Assembly: GCA_041674805.1 (NCBI GenBank)
Contig: JBAYVA010000003.1
Coordinates: forward strand, 91,029-155,028
DNA from: Candidatus Magasanikiibacteriota bacterium
Lineage (GTDB): Bacteria > Patescibacteriota > Patescibacteriia > Magasanikbacterales > UBA922
Length of the DNA: 64,000 nucleotides
Reading direction: 5' to 3'
Part shown: piece by piece, positions 5,659-55,726 of the stretch
How the letters are laid out: every line of letters begins with the position of its first letter
Numbering within the stretch: position 1 is the stretch's first letter
Notes under the pieces: generated by a model
What the model saw: the letters and a program-made list of their open reading frames with translations, nothing else
What the model was told of the DNA's origin: nothing
Databases searched by the model: none
Translations under genes and position numbers: made by a program

Positions 5659-5748
5659 ATGCTTGAAAGGCTTAAAATACTAGTTGCTACACAAATATTT
5701 TAAAAAGCCTTTCAAGCTTTTGGAGCTTTTCAGGCCTTTTTAGCCTTT

Positions 5749-7167
5749 TTATAAAACTTTTCTCTTTCTAAATAAAATAAAAGGAGTCTTAACAAAAACA
5801 ATAATATCCAAATACAAACTCCATTTTTCTATATAAAAAATATCCAATTTCATTTCTTCTTCAAATGACAAATCACTTCTACCAGAAATTTGAGACAAAC
5901 CTGTAATACCTGGTTTCAAAACAAAAACATCAGGATATTCATCTGAATATTTTTCTACTTCTCTTGGCTGATGTGGACGTGGACCTACAATGCTCATTTC
6001 ACCTTTCAAAACATTAAAAAATTGTGGTAGTTCATCAATACTAACACGACGAATAAATCTACCAAAAGGTGTAACACGTGGATCATTTTCAATTTTGTAA
6101 ATTGGTCCTTTTTTACTATTATTTTTATTAATCAATTCTTTTTCTTTTTTCTCAGCCTCTTCACCAGATTTAACGAATTGACTGCCTGTACAATCTTGTT
6201 GATACATCGAACGAAATTTCAAAGTAAAAAAATTTTTACCACGAATACCCACACGTTCATTTTTGTAAATAATAGGACGACCAGTTTCTAACAAAATAAT
6301 CAAACTAGCCAAAAGCATAATCGGACTAATAATAATCAAAATCATTACACTCATAATAATATCAAAAATTCTTTTGGAAATTCTACCCCACCCATCGAGA
6401 GGTGTCTTTTTTAATTCTACGATAGGTATACCTGCCAAAGTATAGATACTCATATTAGTAGAATAAGTAGCAAAAATATCAGCTGAATATTTGAAAACAA
6501 TATGATTTTTATCACAAAATTGTTTCAATTGGATAATATTATCTTCATTATTTTTTGGACTAAACAAAATAATTTCATTAATATTCATTTTTTTTAATTC
6601 ATCATTTAAATTTTTATGGTAATTTTCATAAACTTTTATAACAAAATAACCTAAACGAGAATTTTTTTCTAAAGTATTTACAAAATCCAAAACATTTTTT
6701 TCTTCTCCTATCACAACAACACGACGCAAACCAATTCCAAAACGATACAAAATTGCTTTTAGACCTCTAAGCAAAAATCTTCCTATCATTACAAAAAACA
6801 TGGCAAAAAACCAACTAGCCAAAAGTAAAAATCTTGAATCAAACAATTGACCTGAAAATACAATATATAGAGAAACTATAGATAATCCAATAAAACAAGC
6901 AAATATTATTTTCAATAAATCTTTTGCAAAACGACGGTTTTGATCAATAGAATACAAACCCAAAATAGCAAAAATTATAATCCAAATTATAGAAAAAATA
7001 CTAACTGTGTTTATAAATTGAGACAAATTGATCCCAAAAATCACCGGTTTGATAGCTACAACAAAATCACTAAAACGCAGTGAATAGGCCGTAAAACCAG
7101 CCAAAACAAGCATCAAAAAGTCAATTGGTACTTGTAATAACATAAGTAAAATTTCCGAACGTTTCAT
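5749..7167 (-). CDS. Polyprenyl-phosphate sugar phosphotransferase (bacterial sugar transferase, WbaP/WcaJ-like priming enzyme)
   Basis: N-terminal multi-TM region. C-terminal domain has KFRSM and [21 protein letters not shown] signatures. Confidence 0.85.
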
Positions 7168-7295: not shown

Positions 7296-7330
7296 AGACC
7301 ACCTTGTTTACACAAGCTGGTCTTAATTAT
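7296..7330 (-). terminator. Intrinsic terminator downstream of rnpB
   Basis: On the plus strand an A-run precedes the hairpin agaccaccttgtttacacaagctggtct, which reads as hairpin plus U-run on the minus strand. Confidence 0.45.
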
Positions 7331-7742
7331 TCATTCTACATTTATAAGCCGAATTTTGTTCCCGACTTAGTCGGGAGATGATCATTTATCTAGACCTATA
7401 ATTGCTTATAGGCTCAAACGAGCTAACTTTTCGAAACGATAAATCGCAACGCTGCTCTTTCTTCAGATAGGGTTTACCACGGCATCTCATCACTGAGAGC
7501 CGAAGCTTGTAACCATTTGTCAATTGTGCAAATGATATCAAACTACTTTTCACCTTTTGTCCGCCGAATCGGCGAGTTAGTATTGTCTCTGTGGCACTTT
7601 CCCGCTCAATACCCTTTCAGATAAAGAGGGTGGACGTTATCCACTATCTTTGTCCCAACCCTTCGAGAAGGGTATGGGGAAGTTCGGACTTTCCTATTAG
7701 TCACAATAAAGCAACCAATCGATCATCAAATGTAAAATGCTA
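7330..7742 (-). ncRNA. rnpB: RNase P RNA (bacterial type A)
   Basis: Minus strand carries AGGAAAGUCCGAAC, matching the P4 5' strand AGGAAAGUCCGGGC. It carries GUGCCACAGAGA, matching the universal GUGCAACAGAGAG. Near the 3' end it carries ACAAAAUUCGGCUUAUAA, matching ACAGAACCCGGCUUA. The P4 pairing AAG-U-CCGAA / UUCGGCUU keeps the bulged U with compensatory GG>AA and CC>UU changes. A 12-bp helix pairs the 5' and 3' ends (CAUUUUACAUUU / AAAUGUAGAAUG). The region is locally GC-richer than the flanks. Confidence 0.8.
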
Positions 7743-8458: not shown

Positions 8459-8487
8459 AAAAAATAAATTTATTATTTGATTTTTTG

Positions 8488-8569
8488 TATCGAAGGGGGG
8501 ACTCGAACCCCCACGCTCTTACGAGCCTAGCACCTCAAGCTAGTGTGTATACCATTCCACCACTCCGAC
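8488..8569 (-). tRNA. tRNA-Leu (anticodon GAG), class II with long variable arm
   Basis: Minus-strand sequence: GTCGGAG-TG-GTG/GAATGGTATA/CAC-A-CTAGC/TTGAGGT/GCTAG-long variable arm-GGGGG/TTCGAGT/CCCCC-CTTCGAT-A. Acceptor stem has two G-U pairs; discriminator is A73. Coordinates +/-2. Confidence 0.75.
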
Positions 8570-48120: not shown

Positions 48121-48194
48121 GGGCTAGTAGCTCAGTTGGTTAGAGCACAACGCTTATAACGTTGGGGTCGATGGTTCAAGTCCATCCTAGCCTA
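48121..48194 (+). tRNA. tRNA with anticodon UAU (Ile, AUA-reading) - canonical cloverleaf
   Basis: GGGCTAG-TA-GCTC/AGTTGGTTA/GAGC-A-CAACG/CTTATAA/CGTTG-GGGTC-GATGG/TTCAAGT/CCATC-CTAGCCT-A. Anticodon-loop positions 34-36 are TAT. Confidence 0.7.
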
Positions 48195-48195
48195 C

Positions 48196-49988: not shown

Positions 49989-51284
49989 TTATTTTTTATC
50001 TGCAAAAATTTTTACAGTACCAAACACACCATCATATCCTGGTTTCACAAAAATATTCCCACTACGCACACGTGAAATTGCTTCAGCAATTTTTTCTCCA
50101 GGTACTTTTGCAATCTGCGAAAGATCAGCTTCAAGTAAAATAAAAAATTCATTATGAAAATTCTGTAATAATTTTTCGTAAGTTTCACTAACTTTTTTGG
50201 TATTTACACCGCAAGCAAAAACATCTGCCAAAATTTCTGCCAAAGGTACAATACTTTGGTAAGGAATTTTTCTTTTACCAGCATCACGGGCTTCTTCAAT
50301 ACTTCTATCCGCCAATTCATGTACTCTATTCTCTACTCCGATAATTAATTTTTTACCACACTTCGGACAAAGTCCTTTCAATTTTTTTGTTTCTTCTGGA
50401 GCACAAGAAAAATTGCAAGACATATGTCCATCATAATGATACTTTCCTTCTTCTGGAAAAAATTCTATCGTCGAAATAAATTTTTTTCTATCTTGTTCAT
50501 CAATAATTCTTTTTATTTCTGTATAAGTAATATCTTTTTCTGATTTAAAATAAAAAACATTAGCTTCCCTACCTAGTTTGGCATTACTATGCGCATCAGA
50601 ATTTGATATGAGCGTGATATTATCCAAACTTGACAACCTCCAGTTCATGAGTGGATCGCTCGACAGACCCGTCTCTATGGCCCGTACATAAGGTGTCAAT
50701 TCTTCAAACGCGTCTTGCAAAGAATCATAACCACCTTTGCTACCAAAAATACCAAACCACGGTGTCCAAGCATGCGCCGGAATCATCATCATGCGTTCAT
50801 CGGTCTCAAGCATGAGTTCCAAAATCTGTTTTGAAGTCAAACCCAAAATAGGACGACCATCAGATTTCAAATTGAAACCCATTTTATTCAATTTATTATT
50901 AAATTTTTCAGCCACTTCAATACTTGGTGCAAAAATAAGCAAATGAATTCTACGTGTTTTACCTTTGTGTTTTTTTATAGAAGCAATTTCCGTCCCAACT
51001 ATAAAGCGCGTCTTAGAGTCAACGTCATCACCTCTCCTATTAGGAGAGGTCGACTGGGACGACGCAGTCCCAGCGGGTGAGGTCTTTAATTTATAAACTC
51101 CTTCCGTATCCTCAACCAAACAATCTTTCATATGTTGGAACCACTTCGGATGCGTAAAATCTGAAGTAGATATAATATCTATTCCTTTGGTTTCACAAGT
51201 CTTTGCAATCAAAGGCAATTCTAAACTCTTCGAGCAAGCACGAGAATATTTTGAATGGATGTGCAAGTCAAGCACTTTTTTCAT
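49989..51284 (-). CDS. PHP-domain nuclease with a C-terminal zinc ribbon, endonuclease Q-like
   Basis: N-terminal [9 protein letters not shown] PHP motif. Further His/Asp motifs ([15 protein letters not shown]). CNFSCAPE...CPKCGKK zinc ribbon. About 430 aa, like EndoQ. Contains an in-frame GC-rich palindromic insertion. Confidence 0.5.
   Translation of the reverse strand: [431 protein letters not shown]
51021..51085. repeat. GC-rich palindromic element inserted in-frame in the EndoQ-like gene
   Basis: acctctcctattaggagaggt is a perfect 21-nt palindrome; tgggacgacgcagtccca is a second hairpin. Encodes a low-complexity loop [23 protein letters not shown]. Confidence 0.6.
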
Positions 51285-51303
51285 AGCAAGTTATTAATAA
51301 AAC

Positions 51304-51338
51304 AATCCTGATTTTCGGATAATACGGATGATACGGAT
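51304..51338 (-). repeat. Copy C (reverse orientation) of the ATCCG(T/G)A periodic element
   Basis: Reverse complement reads ATCCGTATC ATCCGTATT ATCCGAAAA TCAGGATT. About 25-55 nt upstream of the EndoQ-like start. Confidence 0.65.
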
Positions 51339-51415
51339 TATAAACTAAGTTAAAAAATATTTGTGAATATTCGTTTTACATTTGTGTTATCCATAACAGT
51401 GTAGTCCCAAATAAC

Positions 51416-52138
51416 TTACAAATATTCTATTTCTTCATCTGAAAGTCGCTTTATTCCGGTGTCATTTTCCACTTCTTCCAAAACCTGAGCCACAAGACCT
51501 GGTACACGAGCGATGATAAATATACCGTTTCCAATATTACTTGCCATTCCCATATCACAAAGTATAGCAGCAATAGCACCATCTGCATTGAGTGGTAATT
51601 TTTTGGATGAAATTTCATTCAAGTTTTTTTCAACCACCAAAGCCAATTCACAATGTTGACCAAAAATATCATTTTGTTTTGCTATTTCAAACAATTTCAC
51701 AGTGCGTGGATCAGCATCTTCGAAAAATTTGTGACCATATCCCAAAACATATTGTTTGTTTTCTTTCATTTGTTTTAGCAAAGTCAACCAATCTTTTTCA
51801 TCTTCATGATTATAAAAAAATTCCATAGCTTGTGAAATGACTACACCATGCCTTTCACCAAGACCAAGTAGTCCTGCTGCTACTGACGCATGAAGAGGAT
51901 TTTTAGCAGAAGCTGAAATACGAGCAGTCAGAGCAGAAGCCGTTGCAGGACCATGATCAATGACTGAACTCAAAATTGCTTCAAACATTTTTGTTTGTTT
52001 TTTGTCTGGAATTTTTCCGGTCAACAAGAAAAAAATATTTTGTGCAAAAGTATTTTCTGTCATCAATTTTTCTAATTTTTCACCACGAATTATTTCTTCT
52101 CCTTTTTCTACTTTGGTTAGTTTGGTTTGGAATTTCAT
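51416..52138 (-). CDS. Short citrate-synthase-family protein (citryl-CoA lyase-like, about 240 aa)
   Basis: Citrate-synthase signature GYGHKFFEDADPR. Only the C-terminal catalytic region of a full citrate synthase is present. Confidence 0.5.
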   Translation of the reverse strand: MKFQTKLTKVEKGEEIIRGEKLEKLMTENTFAQNIFFLLTGKIPDKKQTKMFEAILSSVIDHGPATASALTARISASAKNPLHASVAAGLLGLGERHGVVISQAMEFFYNHEDEKDWLTLLKQMKENKQYVLGYGHKFFEDADPRTVKLFEIAKQNDIFGQHCELALVVEKNLNEISSKKLPLNADGAIAAILCDMGMASNIGNGIFIIARVPGLVAQVLEEVENDTGIKRLSDEEIEYL

Positions 52139-52185
52139 ATATATCCTGAAGCGCAGCGAGGGATCTGTAGACCCTGAGCACGCTA
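52139..52185 (-). promoter_or_regulatory. Conserved GC-rich 5'-leader element (copy 1), directly abutting the start codon
   Basis: Plus strand atcctgaagcgcagcgagggatctgtagaccctgagcacgc; about 85% identical to 59147-59190. The mRNA-sense strand ends ...CGCUUCAGGAUAUAU-AUG, supplying the only SD-like AGGA. Confidence 0.5.
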
Positions 52186-52241
52186 ATTAAAATTAAAATT
52201 TTACCGAAGTTTTCTAAATATTCTGCGTAAATCCGCGTCTC

Positions 52242-53138
52242 TCAAGCAAAAGGTTTTATCAATGTAACAAGATCTTCATATCTATCCGCAATCATCACAC
52301 CCACTTCGGACAAAGCTTTGGATTTTTCTAGAGCTCCTTTGCCACGCTCCACAATCGCACCAGCATGACCAATATTCATACCTTCTGGCAAAGTGCTAGC
52401 AAATTTTCCACCGATATAAATCGCGAGCGGTTTGGAATATTCCTTATTTTTGATAAGATCTACTATTTCAAATTCATAACTACCACCATGCTCACCAAAA
52501 ATTATCACGGCTTTTGTTTCCTCATCTTTTTCAAATAATTTCAACAAATCTGCATAAGTCGTGCCCATAAGTAAGTCCCCTCCCACATGCACAGCAGTAC
52601 TTTGTCCCAATCCTGCTTTTCGCACTTGCCAAGAAACTTCATTTGTCATACCACCCGAACGAGAAATAATACCAATACTACCAGGAGTAAATATTTCGTC
52701 AGCTTGTACTTTTGGTCCACCGACTACACCAATACGTCCAAGACCTGGGGCAATATAGCCAAGCGAACTTGGTCCGATGATTTGAATATTTTTTTCTTTG
52801 GCAGCAGCTAGACAATAAGCTGTATCACGAATTGGCACACGCTCTACAATCGTATTGATTTGTGAAATACCAGACTCAATCGCTTCCAAGATTGCCGCTT
52901 TGGCCGCAAATGGTGGTACATAAATAGCAGTCGTCGTAATATCTGGAAACTGCGCCACAGCTTCAGCTACAGTATTGAAAACTGGTTTACCAAGCACTTC
53001 TTCTCCGCCTTTGCCAGGACGCACTCCACCAATAACGTTGGTACCATAATCCAGCATAGCTTTGGCAGCTTTTTCACCTTCGTTACCAGTGATACCTTGA
53101 ACGAGGACTTTAGTATTTTTGTTTATTAAGATTGACAT
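52242..53138 (-). CDS. sucD: Succinate--CoA ligase alpha subunit (or citryl-CoA synthetase small subunit)
   Basis: MSILINKNTKVLVQGITGNEG N-terminus, SRSGGMTNE, and phosphohistidine loop MNIGHAGAI. Confidence 0.85.
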   Translation of the reverse strand: MSILINKNTKVLVQGITGNEGEKAAKAMLDYGTNVIGGVRPGKGGEEVLGKPVFNTVAEAVAQFPDITTTAIYVPPFAAKAAILEAIESGISQINTIVERVPIRDTAYCLAAAKEKNIQIIGPSSLGYIAPGLGRIGVVGGPKVQADEIFTPGSIGIISRSGGMTNEVSWQVRKAGLGQSTAVHVGGDLLMGTTYADLLKLFEKDEETKAVIIFGEHGGSYEFEIVDLIKNKEYSKPLAIYIGGKFASTLPEGMNIGHAGAIVERGKGALEKSKALSEVGVMIADRYEDLVTLIKPFA

Positions 53139-53152
53139 AAATAAAATAAATT

Positions 53153-53557
53153 TTAAAGTGTCATATCAGCTAAAACTAAATTAAAAAGTATAATAAAAGA
53201 ACAAATTAACGCAAGTAAAAACCAAACTAAAAAAATTCTACTAATAATTATAAATTTTTTTGAAGAAGTATCTTTTGCTTTGAAAAGCATGAAAAAAAAT
53301 AATATATAATATACAGCACCAAACAAAAATACAATTTCATCCATGAAAAAATTTGGATTTATAAAAGAAGAAATCATTGTTATTGGTAATACAGGAAATA
53401 AATAAGCAAATAAAGGCAAAATCCTAAAATTACTAAATTCCCAAGAAGGTGTTTGAAACCCAATAAAAGCAACCATCAAGAAAAATAAATGCACAGCAAA
53501 CCAAGTCCAACCAATTCTCTTAGGTGAATTTTTGTAATATTCTTTTATTCTATTCAT
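53153..53557 (-). CDS. Hypothetical membrane protein (4 TM)
   Basis: Hydrophobic helices throughout; no recognised domain. Confidence 0.35.
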   Translation of the reverse strand: MNRIKEYYKNSPKRIGWTWFAVHLFFLMVAFIGFQTPSWEFSNFRILPLFAYLFPVLPITMISSFINPNFFMDEIVFLFGAVYYILFFFMLFKAKDTSSKKFIIISRIFLVWFLLALICSFIILFNLVLADMTL

Positions 53558-53571
53558 ATAGTTTTTGATAA

Positions 53572-54114
53572 TTATAATTTTAAATATTCTTTAGCACGTA
53601 AAATAACGGCAATAGCTGGTCCATGTACAATTGTACCATCTACAGCCCAATCTATTGCTTGTTGCATTGATACTTTTTCCAAAGATAATGTTTCTTCATC
53701 TGAATCAAGTGATATTTCTGGTATTGAATCAAGTTCTGCGAGAAAAAGATATTCTGTATGATGAATATTACTGGTAAGTCCAGAAATAGTACCAAGTGGA
53801 ATTAACTTTTTTGGTAGAACACCTATTTCCTCTTCTGTCTCACGACGAGCCGCTTGTTCGGGTGTTTCACCTTCATCTAGCTTTCCCCCAGGTGTTTCTA
53901 TTGTTATTTCTCCATAGCCATGACGATATTGTTTTATCAAATAAACATTTCCTTCCTTGTCAATTGGCAAAACAGAAGAACCAAATGGTAATTCTAAAAC
54001 TACAAAATTTAATTCTCTATTAAGCTCATCTATCACAATATCCTCGCGCAACCTTGCCCAAGGATTTTTGAAAATTTCCTTTGTAGATTCTACTTTCCAT
54101 TTTTTTGGTTCCAT
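53572..54114 (-). CDS. NUDIX hydrolase
   Basis: Nudix box GGKLDEGETPEQAARRETEEEIG. Confidence 0.8.
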   Translation of the reverse strand: MEPKKWKVESTKEIFKNPWARLREDIVIDELNRELNFVVLELPFGSSVLPIDKEGNVYLIKQYRHGYGEITIETPGGKLDEGETPEQAARRETEEEIGVLPKKLIPLGTISGLTSNIHHTEYLFLAELDSIPEISLDSDEETLSLEKVSMQQAIDWAVDGTIVHGPAIAVILRAKEYLKL

Positions 54115-54118
54115 ATTA

Positions 54119-54433
54119 TTATTTTCTATTAAACAACTTTTTAAAATTCAACAAAATCATTGGCAATAAAAAACCAATAAAACCAAATTGTATAACACCT
54201 AAAACAAAATAAAAGGATTCTGACAAATTATATACATCAAATTTGAAAATTTTGCTTAAAAAATCTACCAAAATATAAACTGGTAATTCTAAATATAAAA
54301 CTGACATCATAGCTTCACAATCACGACCATACATTTCACAAGGTGCCCAAGCAACTAAATAATAAAGAACAAATAAACCCATCAACAAAACAGACACAAA
54401 TGTATATAAATATAAATTCTTTTTTTCAAACAT
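54119..54433 (-). CDS. Small hypothetical membrane protein
   Basis: 104 aa, three hydrophobic helices. Confidence 0.3.
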   Translation of the reverse strand: MFEKKNLYLYTFVSVLLMGLFVLYYLVAWAPCEMYGRDCEAMMSVLYLELPVYILVDFLSKIFKFDVYNLSESFYFVLGVIQFGFIGFLLPMILLNFKKLFNRK

Positions 54434-54445
54434 AAAATTATTAAA

Positions 54446-55726
54446 TTATTTAATCAAATCCGCCAAAACCTGAGCAGTGTCGCTCATACTTGTTTCTTTG
54501 CCAAATAATTTCATATTAAGGTTATTTCTCTTAGCACACTCTTCCATCACACGCATACCTTCTTTGTCATCAGGCCCAGCCCGACGGACAACTATTGGAA
54601 AGGCCGGCTTGATTTCGTCGAGAGCATCCACTATTCCTTTGAAAGTTTCAGCCACATTAGTAAAGTTAGCTACTACACCACACATCCACAAGCCTTTTAG
54701 CCCTGGTTTGGACAAAACTATTTTGGTTAGCTCATAGACTTTTTCCCGAGGAGGATTGCCTGAATATTCCGTATAATTGGCAGGATCTAAGCCAACTTTT
54801 TTTAAAGCATCCATATTAGCAATACTTGCTCCTCCACCATTTAAGATAAGAGCAATGTCGCCATCTAGCTCAATGTATTTGCCAGCTGTACCTTGGTAAT
54901 ACTTTTCACCTTTATCAATTTCTTGTACATCAATTTCTCGTTCAGTCGCCGGACGACCAAGCATAGTACGAGATTCAAACAAATCCCAATCTGTAATAGT
55001 TGACTGTTCTATTCCTTTTTCTTTAGCACGCTCTTGTGCTTCTTTATTATGACGGAAAAAAGCATCATCATCAAGTGCTACTTTGGCATCGAGAGCTACT
55101 ATTTCTCCAGAAGTTGTTTTGACAAGCGGATTTATTTCTACAACTCTAGTATCCTCAGCGAGAAAACATTGCCAAAGTCTTTGAGCAACTTCTAGATACT
55201 CCTCCCCTATTAGGGGAGGTTGGGAGGGGTTAGATAACTCTGACAAACTTGCTTTTGTGTAACCCCCTCTAACTCCCCCTACAAGGGGGAGAACACTATC
55301 TCGTATATCCAAGGGAACACGTAAAATCTTTTCATCAGAGACATCCTCAATATCCATGCCACCTTCAGTACTAAAAATCAAAACAGGTTGTTTTTTGTTG
55401 GTATCATAAGTGATAGATAAATAATTTTCACTCTCAATATTTATTTTTTCAGTGAGTAAAATTGCTGAAACATATTGTCCACGAATAGACATGGCAAAAA
55501 TTTCTGTAACGGCTTTTTCGACTTCTTCTAAATTATTACAAAATTTTATACCATTATTTTTTCCACGCTTACCAGACAATACTTGAGCTTTGACCACAAC
55601 ACTAACCAAACCTAATTTTTTATAAGCCTCAGCCACATTATCACCACGATGAATAATAACTCCAACAGGAATTTTTATGTTATGTTTTTGAAATAAAGTT
55701 CTACCTTCGAACTCGTATAAGTTCAT
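54446..55726 (-). CDS. sucC: Succinate--CoA ligase beta subunit (ATP-grasp) carrying an in-frame palindromic-element insertion
   Basis: Colinear with SucC. [20 protein letters not shown] matches [44 protein letters not shown] and [20 protein letters not shown] also match. About 36 extra residues ([32 protein letters not shown]) are encoded by a GC-rich palindromic insert. Confidence 0.85.
   Translation of the reverse strand: [426 protein letters not shown]
55198..55300. repeat. GC-rich palindromic element inserted in-frame in sucC
   Basis: cctcccctattaggggagg (perfect 19-nt palindrome, ATTA loop); ctccccctacaagggggag (perfect hairpin); long-range gaggggttag...ctaacccc pairing. Shares the CCYCYCCTATTAGGRGRGG core with the EndoQ insert. 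Confidence 0.6.

Follow-up and report, generated by a model that had tools for sequence, protein, structure and literature searches.

How did GC-rich palindromes come to lie in frame inside enzyme genes of a tiny, AT-rich genome of Candidatus Magasanikbacteria (Patescibacteria, or Candidate Phyla Radiation, CPR), and what kind of sequence are they? The question is raised by a 64-kb stretch of DNA, referred to as the window, which has 30.6% G+C and comes from a metagenome-assembled genome (MAG). Two of its genes, both essential in appearance, each carry a GC-rich, hairpin-forming insert: element 1 lies in a gene for an endonuclease Q (EndoQ) family protein, and element 2 in a gene for the large subunit of a citryl-CoA synthetase/ATP-citrate-lyase-type enzyme (CcsA-like). 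With a probability of roughly 0.78, both segments are small non-autonomous, hairpin-forming dispersed repeats which landed in coding genes. They resemble repetitive extragenic palindromes (REP), REP doublets forming hairpins (REPIN) or miniature inverted-repeat transposable elements (MITE), and they behave like the Rickettsia palindromic elements (RPE).

Two in-frame hairpin inserts

The two host genes and the parts of the two elements are as follows.

49989..51284, minus strand: host gene 1, EndoQ family protein, 431 aa (open reading frame, ORF)
51020..51085, minus strand: element 1, GC-rich palindromic insert in the EndoQ gene, 66 nt, encoding 22 residues
51031..51049, no strand: core hairpin of element 1, CCTCTCCT-ATT-AGGAGAGG, common to element 2 (core match and fold)
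51054..51073, no strand: second hairpin of element 1, CTGGGAC-GACGCA-GTCCCAG (hairpin scan)
54446..55726, minus strand: host gene 2, citryl-CoA synthetase/ATP-citrate-lyase-type large subunit (CcsA-like), 426 aa (ATP-grasp_2 and Citrate_bind domains)
55199..55291, minus strand: element 2, 93-nt insert in the CcsA-like gene, 31 codons (146-176)
55201..55233, plus strand: module A, hairpin CCTCCCCT-ATT-AGGGGAGG (55201-55219) and tail TTGGGAGGGGTTAG (55220-55233)
55234..55259, no strand: variable central loop of the doublet, 26 nt
55260..55291, plus strand: module B, tail TAACCCCCTCTAA (55260-55272) and hairpin CTCCCCCT-ACA-AGGGGGAG (55273-55291)

Two GC-rich insertions had been proposed in a sequence-only reading of the window, and both are real, in frame and stop-free inside long minus-strand ORFs; their boundaries, however, are now placed at 51020-51085 (66 nt) and 55199-55291 (93 nt). 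Both segments peak at 57-70% G+C in 40-nt windows. A scan of the window for perfect GC-rich hairpins found, apart from these two elements, only one hairpin within the gene for RNase P RNA and another just upstream of it. The palindromic core CCYCYCCTATTAGGRGRGG is found exactly twice in the 64 kb, at 51031-51049 and 55201-55219, against a chance expectation of about 0.01 matches, and none of 100 shuffles equalled the observed count. The core was thus rightly read as shared, but its two 19-nt copies differ by one compensatory stem pair (CCTCTCC/GGAGAGG versus CCTCCCC/GGGGAGG) and not by two. Hairpin folding, anticipated for both segments, was confirmed by comparison with shuffled sequences, with z-scores on the two strands of -4.2 and -5.0 for element 1 and of -2.9 and -3.5 for element 2. 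Covariance models of Rfam yielded nothing credible in 50900-55400 up to an E of 10, and at the gathering score the elements had no match in the whole window or in 12 element-bearing loci. Readings as inteins, introns or sites of translational bypass were set aside, as the inserts are 54-93 nt long, multiples of three, stop-free and in frame even when decayed, which makes such readings improbable.

The identification of the first host as EndoQ-like was upheld by an exact database match (P0121) named "endonuclease Q family protein", by Pfam family PF27218 and by similarity to PfuEndoQ (5ZB8, E 1e-56). The second host had been named sucC. The presence of ATP-grasp_2 and Citrate_bind domains, and the fact that the citryl-CoA synthetase large subunit 6HXQ_B is its best-matching relative of known structure, characterise it at the sequence level as SucC-like but not sucC proper. 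Only one insert, not both as was claimed, therefore lies in a SucC-like protein.

Element 1 is a two-hairpin unit within short imperfect inverted arms. Element 2 is an inverted doublet of two modules of about 35 nt, belonging to a 91-nt subfamily. The module consists of a pyrimidine-rich hairpin of 7-8 bp and a TTAGRGGGG tail, with TTC...GAA as its ends. Module B is in design the reverse complement of module A, so that the tails pair and the doublet can form either three hairpins or one long imperfect palindrome.

The hairpin arms (51020-51050 and 55199-55219) also mimic a Shine-Dalgarno/anti-Shine-Dalgarno duplex, with AGGAGAGGTGAT on the coding strand and ATCACCTCTCCT on the plus strand; the latter resembles the 3' end of 16S rRNA.

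Dispersal of the element 2 module

If the inserts are dispersed repeats, further copies are expected outside the two host genes, and these were found for both elements: the module and its doublets in intergenic sequence and in other genes, element 1 in UvrB, UvrC and RecG. For the module census, contigs of one genome per species were scanned with the 19-mer CCCCCTCTAACTCCCCCTA, which module B contains at 55263-55281, and the matching loci (L numbers below) were then fetched. The 19-mer was present in at least 120 stretches of species-representative genomes, and an exact complementary arm lay within 16 nt in 104 of its 147 occurrences. The fetched loci held 251 modules of about 35 nt and 40 inverted A-B doublets of 72-125 nt, in alternating orientation. 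A perfect hairpin was located directly upstream of 52% of the tail motifs, compared with 1.4% of random positions. Modules occur singly, paired and in clusters (the latter in L009, L018, L047, L060, L069 and L111).

Most copies are extragenic: 118 of 145 module matches were outside any ORF of at least 150 aa. The 91-nt subfamily is also present at two sites outside the host gene (L103 and L116), which no ORF of at least 150 aa spans, and other Magasanikbacteria (L005, L022, L025, L077, L015) carry a 94-nt subfamily between genes. Doublets of the element 2 type were found in frame in a TatD-like gene (L043) and in UvrB (L140, L142), together with an in-frame module copy in a gene of L065 whose local sequence looks like leucyl-tRNA synthetase. 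The same doublet architecture is thus seen both between and within genes of related genomes.

Among the matches listed, the module carriers include Magasanikbacteria, Peribacteria, Saccharibacteria, Gracilibacteria, Prevotellaceae and Chitinophagaceae, and further Cloacimonadota, Armatimonadota, cyanobacteria and a Chloroflexota isolate. The sequence-only reading had pointed to an unrelated lineage and a sequence distinct from that of Rickettsia; this is right, but the module is spread across phyla and is not specific to the lineage. The possibility that the segments are artefacts of assembly or binning, i.e., chimeric joins or foreign GC-rich reads, has next to no probability. The window does come from a MAG, and some MAG labels among the matches are clearly unreliable, as in CAYFPJ01, which is labelled Gammaproteobacteria and encodes Magasanikbacteria-like proteins. 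However, the same inserts recur in independent NCBI, JGI, ENA and Logan assemblies, with divergence of the host genes around them, and modules are also carried by cultured organisms, including Xylanibacter ruminicola KHT3, Leptolyngbya PCC 7375 and Ca. Lucifugimonas marina JH545.

In some Armatimonadota and Cloacimonadota (L037, L054, L057, L098, L109, L114) and cyanobacteria (L040, L049, L087, L105, L127), the 19-mer is found inside other, longer conserved repeats, for example ...GTGTGAAAACAGATGAAAAGCACGATTTTTT...CCCCCTCTAACTCCCCCTA... and ...GGCTACGGTGTACACACAAGT...CCCCCTCTAACTCCCCCTAAAGCCC...GGGCATGCGC.

Element 1 in DNA-repair genes

Copies of element 1 were sought by a metagenome scan with the DNA pattern GTCGACCTCTCCTN{3,5}AGGAGAGGT, which gave 13 matches. 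In AT-rich metagenome contigs of 32-34% G+C, the element of about 66 nt recurs almost base for base, and in the same frame, in three further genes, each identified by Pfam.

L140, L142: element 1 in UvrB
L133, L141, L144: element 1 in UvrC
L143: element 1 in RecG

These copies encode a shared 19-residue peptide. The core hairpin with flanking TCGACC...T is present in all of them and also in the EndoQ of L130, a host 69% identical to that of the window, and relatives carry different hairpins at the position of the second one. In the RecG copy, the second hairpin is a compensatory variant, CTGTGAC/GTCACAG. The UvrB of L140 holds both element types, and that of L142 holds three inserts, one of them nested. 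All four distinct hosts of element 1 (EndoQ, UvrB, UvrC and RecG) are DNA-repair genes, entered in one orientation and one frame. An exhaustive phmmer search for element 1 hosts with a 30-aa segment returned nothing at E up to 0.001, and a query with the peptide duplicated in tandem found no shared words. Since peptide searches gave no hosts, the DNA-repair bias rests on the 13 metagenome matches.

The apparent restriction to repair genes would fit a different explanation, namely that the hairpins, mobile in origin or not, are functional cis-acting signals. They could, for example, be mRNA or single-stranded DNA structures bound by a trans-acting protein or RNA that marks a group of genes or co-regulates them; for element 1 this group would be the repair genes EndoQ, UvrB, UvrC and RecG. 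Element 1 was retrieved by its DNA pattern alone, and yet all its hosts belong to one functional class and share orientation and frame. A hairpin was preserved by compensatory change in RecG, 43 of 44 synonymous positions of the element 2 modules were kept in host genes of 64-70% identity, and the module is conserved across phyla. Moreover, the purine arms read directly in the sequence (AGGAGAGGTGAT) are Shine-Dalgarno-like, and intragenic REPs in replication and repair genes were noted by Di Nocera et al. (PMC3733652). However, the same genes of close relatives lack the inserts, decayed copies persist in frame (L003, L004), and most module copies are intergenic with an inconsistent gene context. 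A gene of central metabolism is among the hosts of element 2, no Rfam family corresponds to the hairpins, and four hosts are a small sample. On balance, this explanation is considered unlikely. A related proposal, to which we would give only a slim chance, treats element 1 as a nucleic-acid signal specific to repair genes (a "regulon tag" within coding sequence) and, more broadly, the module, conserved from Patescibacteria to Bacteroidota, as a cross-phylum hairpin element with undescribed machinery for mobilisation or recognition. If it were true, the synonymous conservation, fixed orientation and fixed frame of element 1 would reflect recognition by a trans-acting factor.

The UvrB and UvrC genes of the related AT-rich contigs (L140 1-2178, L142 2987-5440, L141/L144) contain several independent in-frame GC-rich inserts, whose peptides (e.g., ...TSPTRGG, SSSTRGSLTSTSLRSGSLRTN, GGSASGG, SAKATEGKP) differ among close relatives. 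The RecG gene of L143 (2630-5299) holds, besides element 1, a whole PDDEXK_3 (PF13366) nuclease domain within the helicase core, at residues 473-586; free-standing PDDEXK_3 genes are present in L002 and L131.

Filled and empty sites in orthologous genes

Dispersed repeats should be present in some orthologues and absent from others, and alignment confirmed this: the inserts are not conserved at the protein level in distant homologues, and empty sites exist in close relatives. The EndoQ insert is limited to the window and its 94% identical relative. It is absent at 77-86% identity, where the proteins read YKLKD-xSSKT. At the same β-turn, more distant EndoQs have inserts, some related and some not, and among 28 aligned EndoQ sequences 16 have some insert at the site and 11 have none.

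The history of the CcsA-like insert is more complex. Relatives of 83-100% identity carry it; in L003 and L004 (76-82%) it has half decayed without leaving the frame, and it is absent from L005 and from P0016-20 (73-79%), the latter keeping EKELxxxLELPxEF, a motif of ancestral appearance. At 65-68% identity, P0021/22/26 once more have the insert. When the insert region was masked, a neighbour-joining tree did not show the carriers as monophyletic but placed them in two distant clades, and other lineages have unrelated inserts at the same point. The sequence-only reading had taken SucC homologues to be continuous at this site, which proved incorrect: in the structures of SucC and citryl-CoA synthetase this stretch comprises about 37 unrelated residues, against 14-21 in the short forms of Patescibacteria. 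This makes the site a segment that is tolerant and variable in length.

For this gene, a single ancient insertion followed by vertical inheritance and several losses, in place of repeated insertion at one site, is rather doubtful. In its favour, the two clades agree in codon position and in the length of 91 nt, and decay or partial loss is seen in L003 and L004. Against this, the intervening lineages keep an ancestral-looking short motif, EK-L-x-LD-x-EIPFA, and the L006 copy is nearer to the L103 copy, which lies outside the gene in its own genome (81/91 positions), than to its orthologous counterpart in the window (74/91). Such a pattern is indicative either of several insertions at the same site or of conversion among copies. 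The module DNA is also far too conserved for the age that a single insertion implies, unless conversion or constraint acts, and the tree itself is a neighbour-joining sketch.

Conservation of DNA, reading frame and protein loop

The features under conservation in element 2 can be judged from two comparisons of the window gene with orthologues.

Window versus L006: host gene outside the element 68%; gene third positions 44-55%; modules 94-97%; module third positions 22/22; centre 44%
Window versus L007: host gene outside the element 68%; gene third positions 42-45%; modules 91-97%; module third positions 21/22; centre 56%

Conservation thus lies in the DNA, including the 43 of 44 third codon positions kept in the two comparisons together, and exceeds that of the host gene. 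Of the six frames of the window's element 2, the one in use is the only open one, and 21 of 39 doublets lack an open frame altogether. The inserts are multiples of three, and neither decay nor the nesting of a 21-nt palindrome has taken them out of frame.

In the AlphaFold model of the CcsA-like protein, residues 139-174 form a coil, with a predicted local distance difference test score (pLDDT) below 50 at 150-170, between a strand (134-138) and a helix (175-190). In the EndoQ model, residues 67-92 form a coil, with pLDDT below 50 at 70-87, between β-strands E63-66 and E93-106. The mapping of the inserts onto structures accordingly places both in low-confidence loops, and both are predicted by these models to occupy fold-compatible positions on the surface.

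These loops could also be understood as lineage-specific, flexible protein-level adaptations selected for their peptide, with the hairpin potential being incidental. Both inserts are indeed hydrophilic, rich in Ser, Thr, Pro and Gly and located on predicted surfaces; the frame is kept in all relatives, decayed copies included, and one frame is used across every host. However, the same DNA is found in intergenic sequence, third codon positions are kept while the centre of the peptide diverges, an identical peptide occurs in unrelated proteins, and relatives with empty sites are nested among carriers. The existence of intergenic copies largely refutes selection for the peptide, which is regarded as very improbable.

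Proposed mobilisation and the weight of contrary evidence

Dispersal to unrelated loci, presence and absence at orthologous sites, preservation of the frame, location in modelled loops and conservation of DNA above that of the host gene are all documented here, and they bear out the RPE-like behaviour first suspected from the hairpins. In the proposed scenario, small non-autonomous repeats would have spread by way of single-stranded DNA that forms a hairpin and is processed in trans by a transposase; the leading candidate is an HUH/Y1 enzyme of the REP-associated tyrosine transposase (RAYT) type. Some copies would have landed inside protein-coding genes, and these may have survived because they were in frame, stop-free and placed in a surface loop where the structure tolerates additions. 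The module ends would be kept uniform by recent insertion, by conversion between copies or by both, and the extra peptides are probably translated and roughly neutral.

A search with phmmer and Pfam detected Y1_Tnp-like genes in 3 of about 140 loci, none of them flanked by the module. One, a RAYT-like Y1_Tnp gene in a Magasanikbacteria MAG (L015 708-1322), places the candidate enzyme class in the lineage. It is preceded by a GTAG-type REP, GTAGGGACAGGTCGCGACCTGTCCCTAC (647-683), and interrupted in frame by the same REP (1038-1068); neither the window nor any other fetched locus yielded a copy of this REP. In L114, a Y1_Tnp gene lies about 1.1 kb from the copy of the 19-mer.

Several observations weigh against the dispersed-repeat explanation. 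No transposase could be linked to either family, the window contains no Y1 transposase match, and the GTAG REP of L015 is a palindrome different from the module. The module is nearly identical across phyla. REPs are usually species-specific, and such cross-phylum near-identity of a 35-nt module is unusual for them. The vector search found the module in one viral contig of IMG/VR and in one weak, partial plasmid match, and phage records gave no match; with so few matches, no vector explains the spread across phyla. The same codon of the CcsA-like gene is filled in two distant clades, which requires site preference or conversion. Three of the six frames of element 1 are open, and yet the same one is used in all four hosts; this single frame, together with the restriction to repair genes, is not predicted by purely random insertion plus filtering. 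Finally, no exact pair of filled and empty intergenic sites that would reveal a target-site duplication was recovered, as the spacers were too diverged or the gene order differed. The flanks of the four element 1 copies likewise showed no consistent target-site duplication.

Gene neighbourhood and other GC-rich palindromes

Downstream of the CcsA-like gene lie two further genes on the minus strand.

52242-53138, minus strand: CoA-binding small subunit gene, downstream of host gene 2
51416-52138, minus strand: citrate-synthase-C-terminal (citryl-CoA-lyase-like) gene, downstream of host gene 2

The region 51416-55726 thus holds a citryl-CoA synthetase/citryl-CoA lyase-type gene set in a CPR genome (large subunit, small subunit and citrate-synthase C-terminal domain). 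In the window, the two synthetase subunits are split by three extra genes, i.e., membrane-like ORFs of 104 and 134 aa and a NUDIX hydrolase; in L002 and L004 the subunits are adjacent. A tRNA-Ile gene with anticodon UAU is located at 48121-48195 of the window and a tRNA-Leu(GAG) gene at 8487-8569.

Other small palindromes occur in the same surroundings. In the CcsA-like gene of L004, a 21-nt CCTGCCGGCAGG palindrome is nested in frame (AMPAGRQ) within the decayed element 2, at 2036-2056. It is also found nested in another repeat, and such nesting counts in favour of the dispersed-repeat explanation. The palindrome of about 20 nt, CCTGCC(TGCC)GGCAGGCAGG, is also intergenic (L004 5721-5741 and 5832-5851; L005 12742-12757) and appears to represent a family of its own, made up of mobile palindromes of very small size. 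A third small GC-rich element (CTCAGGGTCTACAGATCCCTC...TTCAG, minus strand) is present at 52142-52187 of the window, between the genes of the CoA-binding subunit and the citryl-CoA-lyase-like protein. It occupies the same place in L004 (4916-4930), where an inverted second copy downstream of the lyase-like gene (5740-5754) holds a nested CCTGCCGGCAGGCAGG palindrome. In L005 (17560-17860), two partial, tRNA-like repeats come after a tRNA gene, with GC-rich hairpins (TCCCGACTTTGTCGGGA and CCCCGCCCTTCGCGAAGGGCGGGG) taking the place of their middle parts.

The RNase P RNA gene of the window (class A, 155 bits; 7329-7738, minus strand) measures 410 nt, compared with the 367 nt of the model. The TCCCGACTTAGTCGGGA hairpin at 7360-7376 was suspected to be a further element and was rejected because it aligns within the RNase P RNA model. 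Around 7655-7680, a GC-rich palindromic segment of about 20 nt, CCCAACCCTTCGAGAAGGGTATGGGG, stands in an insert state relative to the model and may be either a lineage-specific helix or an invading palindrome. Invasion of RNase P RNA by a palindrome has been reported for Rickettsia.

Comparison with known systems and significance

The genomes of CPR bacteria are among the smallest and most streamlined, and this one still tolerates selfish hairpin repeats in conserved enzymes, in parallel with Rickettsia and in an unrelated reduced lineage. Such inserts would explain part of the length variation and low-complexity loops of CPR proteins; they can mislead alignment, annotation and structure prediction, and they represent natural experiments on the origin of new protein segments. 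The apparent restriction of element 1 to repair genes and the cross-phylum identity of the module offer concrete, testable leads to the spread or the use of such repeats. A literature search, incomplete in its coverage, found no description of such in-frame palindromic repeats in Patescibacteria.

GC-rich hairpin elements are known from the mitochondria of yeast and Allomyces. In the AT-rich mitochondria of sponges, GC clusters, double-hairpin and repetitive hairpin elements (PMC2800124) likewise invade a compact AT-rich genome, sometimes inside coding or RNA genes without destroying them and with nested insertions. These are organellar, eukaryotic and unrelated in sequence, and they serve as an analogy only.

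The closest behavioural parallel suggested from the outset is that of the RPEs, of which RPE-1 to RPE-10 (Ogata et al., 2000) are summarised in PMC2229807 and PMC10969869; they measure 105-146 or about 150 bp and reside in dozens of genes. Like RPEs, the present elements are dispersed repeats of palindromic sequence which fold into hairpins in a reduced genome that is small and AT-rich, with copies both intergenic and in frame within several unrelated conserved protein genes (here EndoQ, CcsA-like, UvrB, UvrC, RecG and TatD-like), and with an extra peptide where it is structurally tolerated and relatives without the insert. The present elements differ in their host phylum, Patescibacteria, in their shorter length (66 and 93 nt), in being strongly GC-rich against a 31% G+C background, in being built of modules of about 35 nt that also occur singly and clustered, and in the presence of the module in many phyla, in contrast to the genus-specific RPEs. 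Given their Magasanikbacteria host and their size, they are not filed as RPEs. RPE-like behaviour outside Rickettsia is not new, since in-frame intragenic palindromes have already been documented in other bacteria (PMC3733652, PMC2229807).

REPs, bacterial interspersed mosaic elements (BIME) and REPINs (PMC3733652; Bertels and Rainey, 2011, PMC3116915) are believed to owe their mobility to RAYT (Y1/HUH) transposases that act on hairpins of single-stranded DNA. Intragenic REP dimers are established in a number of bacteria, with uvrA/uvrB and other repair genes as notable hosts, and encode 20-30 residues (PMC3733652). With these systems the present elements share a unit in the form of a 20-40-nt imperfect palindrome in many copies, inverted dimers folding into a longer hairpin, clusters of alternating orientation and a mostly extragenic location, often just after stop codons, with occasional in-frame intragenic dimers. 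However, the module lacks the conserved unpaired GTAG or CGTC tag, GTAG being present in some hairpin loops only; no RAYT is linked to the family in the roughly 140 loci, and near-identity across phyla is atypical. Bacterial MITEs with in-frame fusions include ERIC, the 107-bp form of Correia/NEMIS and YPAL (PMC2229807). Small size, quasi-terminal inverted repeats (the modules are inverted copies, and element 1 has short imperfect inverted arms), stable stem-loop transcripts and ORFs fused in frame to host genes connect them with the present elements. The latter are smaller and modular, no target-site duplication or TA termini were identified, and no parent insertion sequence with matching ends came to light in the fetched loci. 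Taken together, these comparisons support the view that the two elements make up a new family within a known kind of repeat (RPE, intragenic REP or MITE-like), which is set apart by its different phylum, its shorter, modular and tagless structure and its distribution across phyla.

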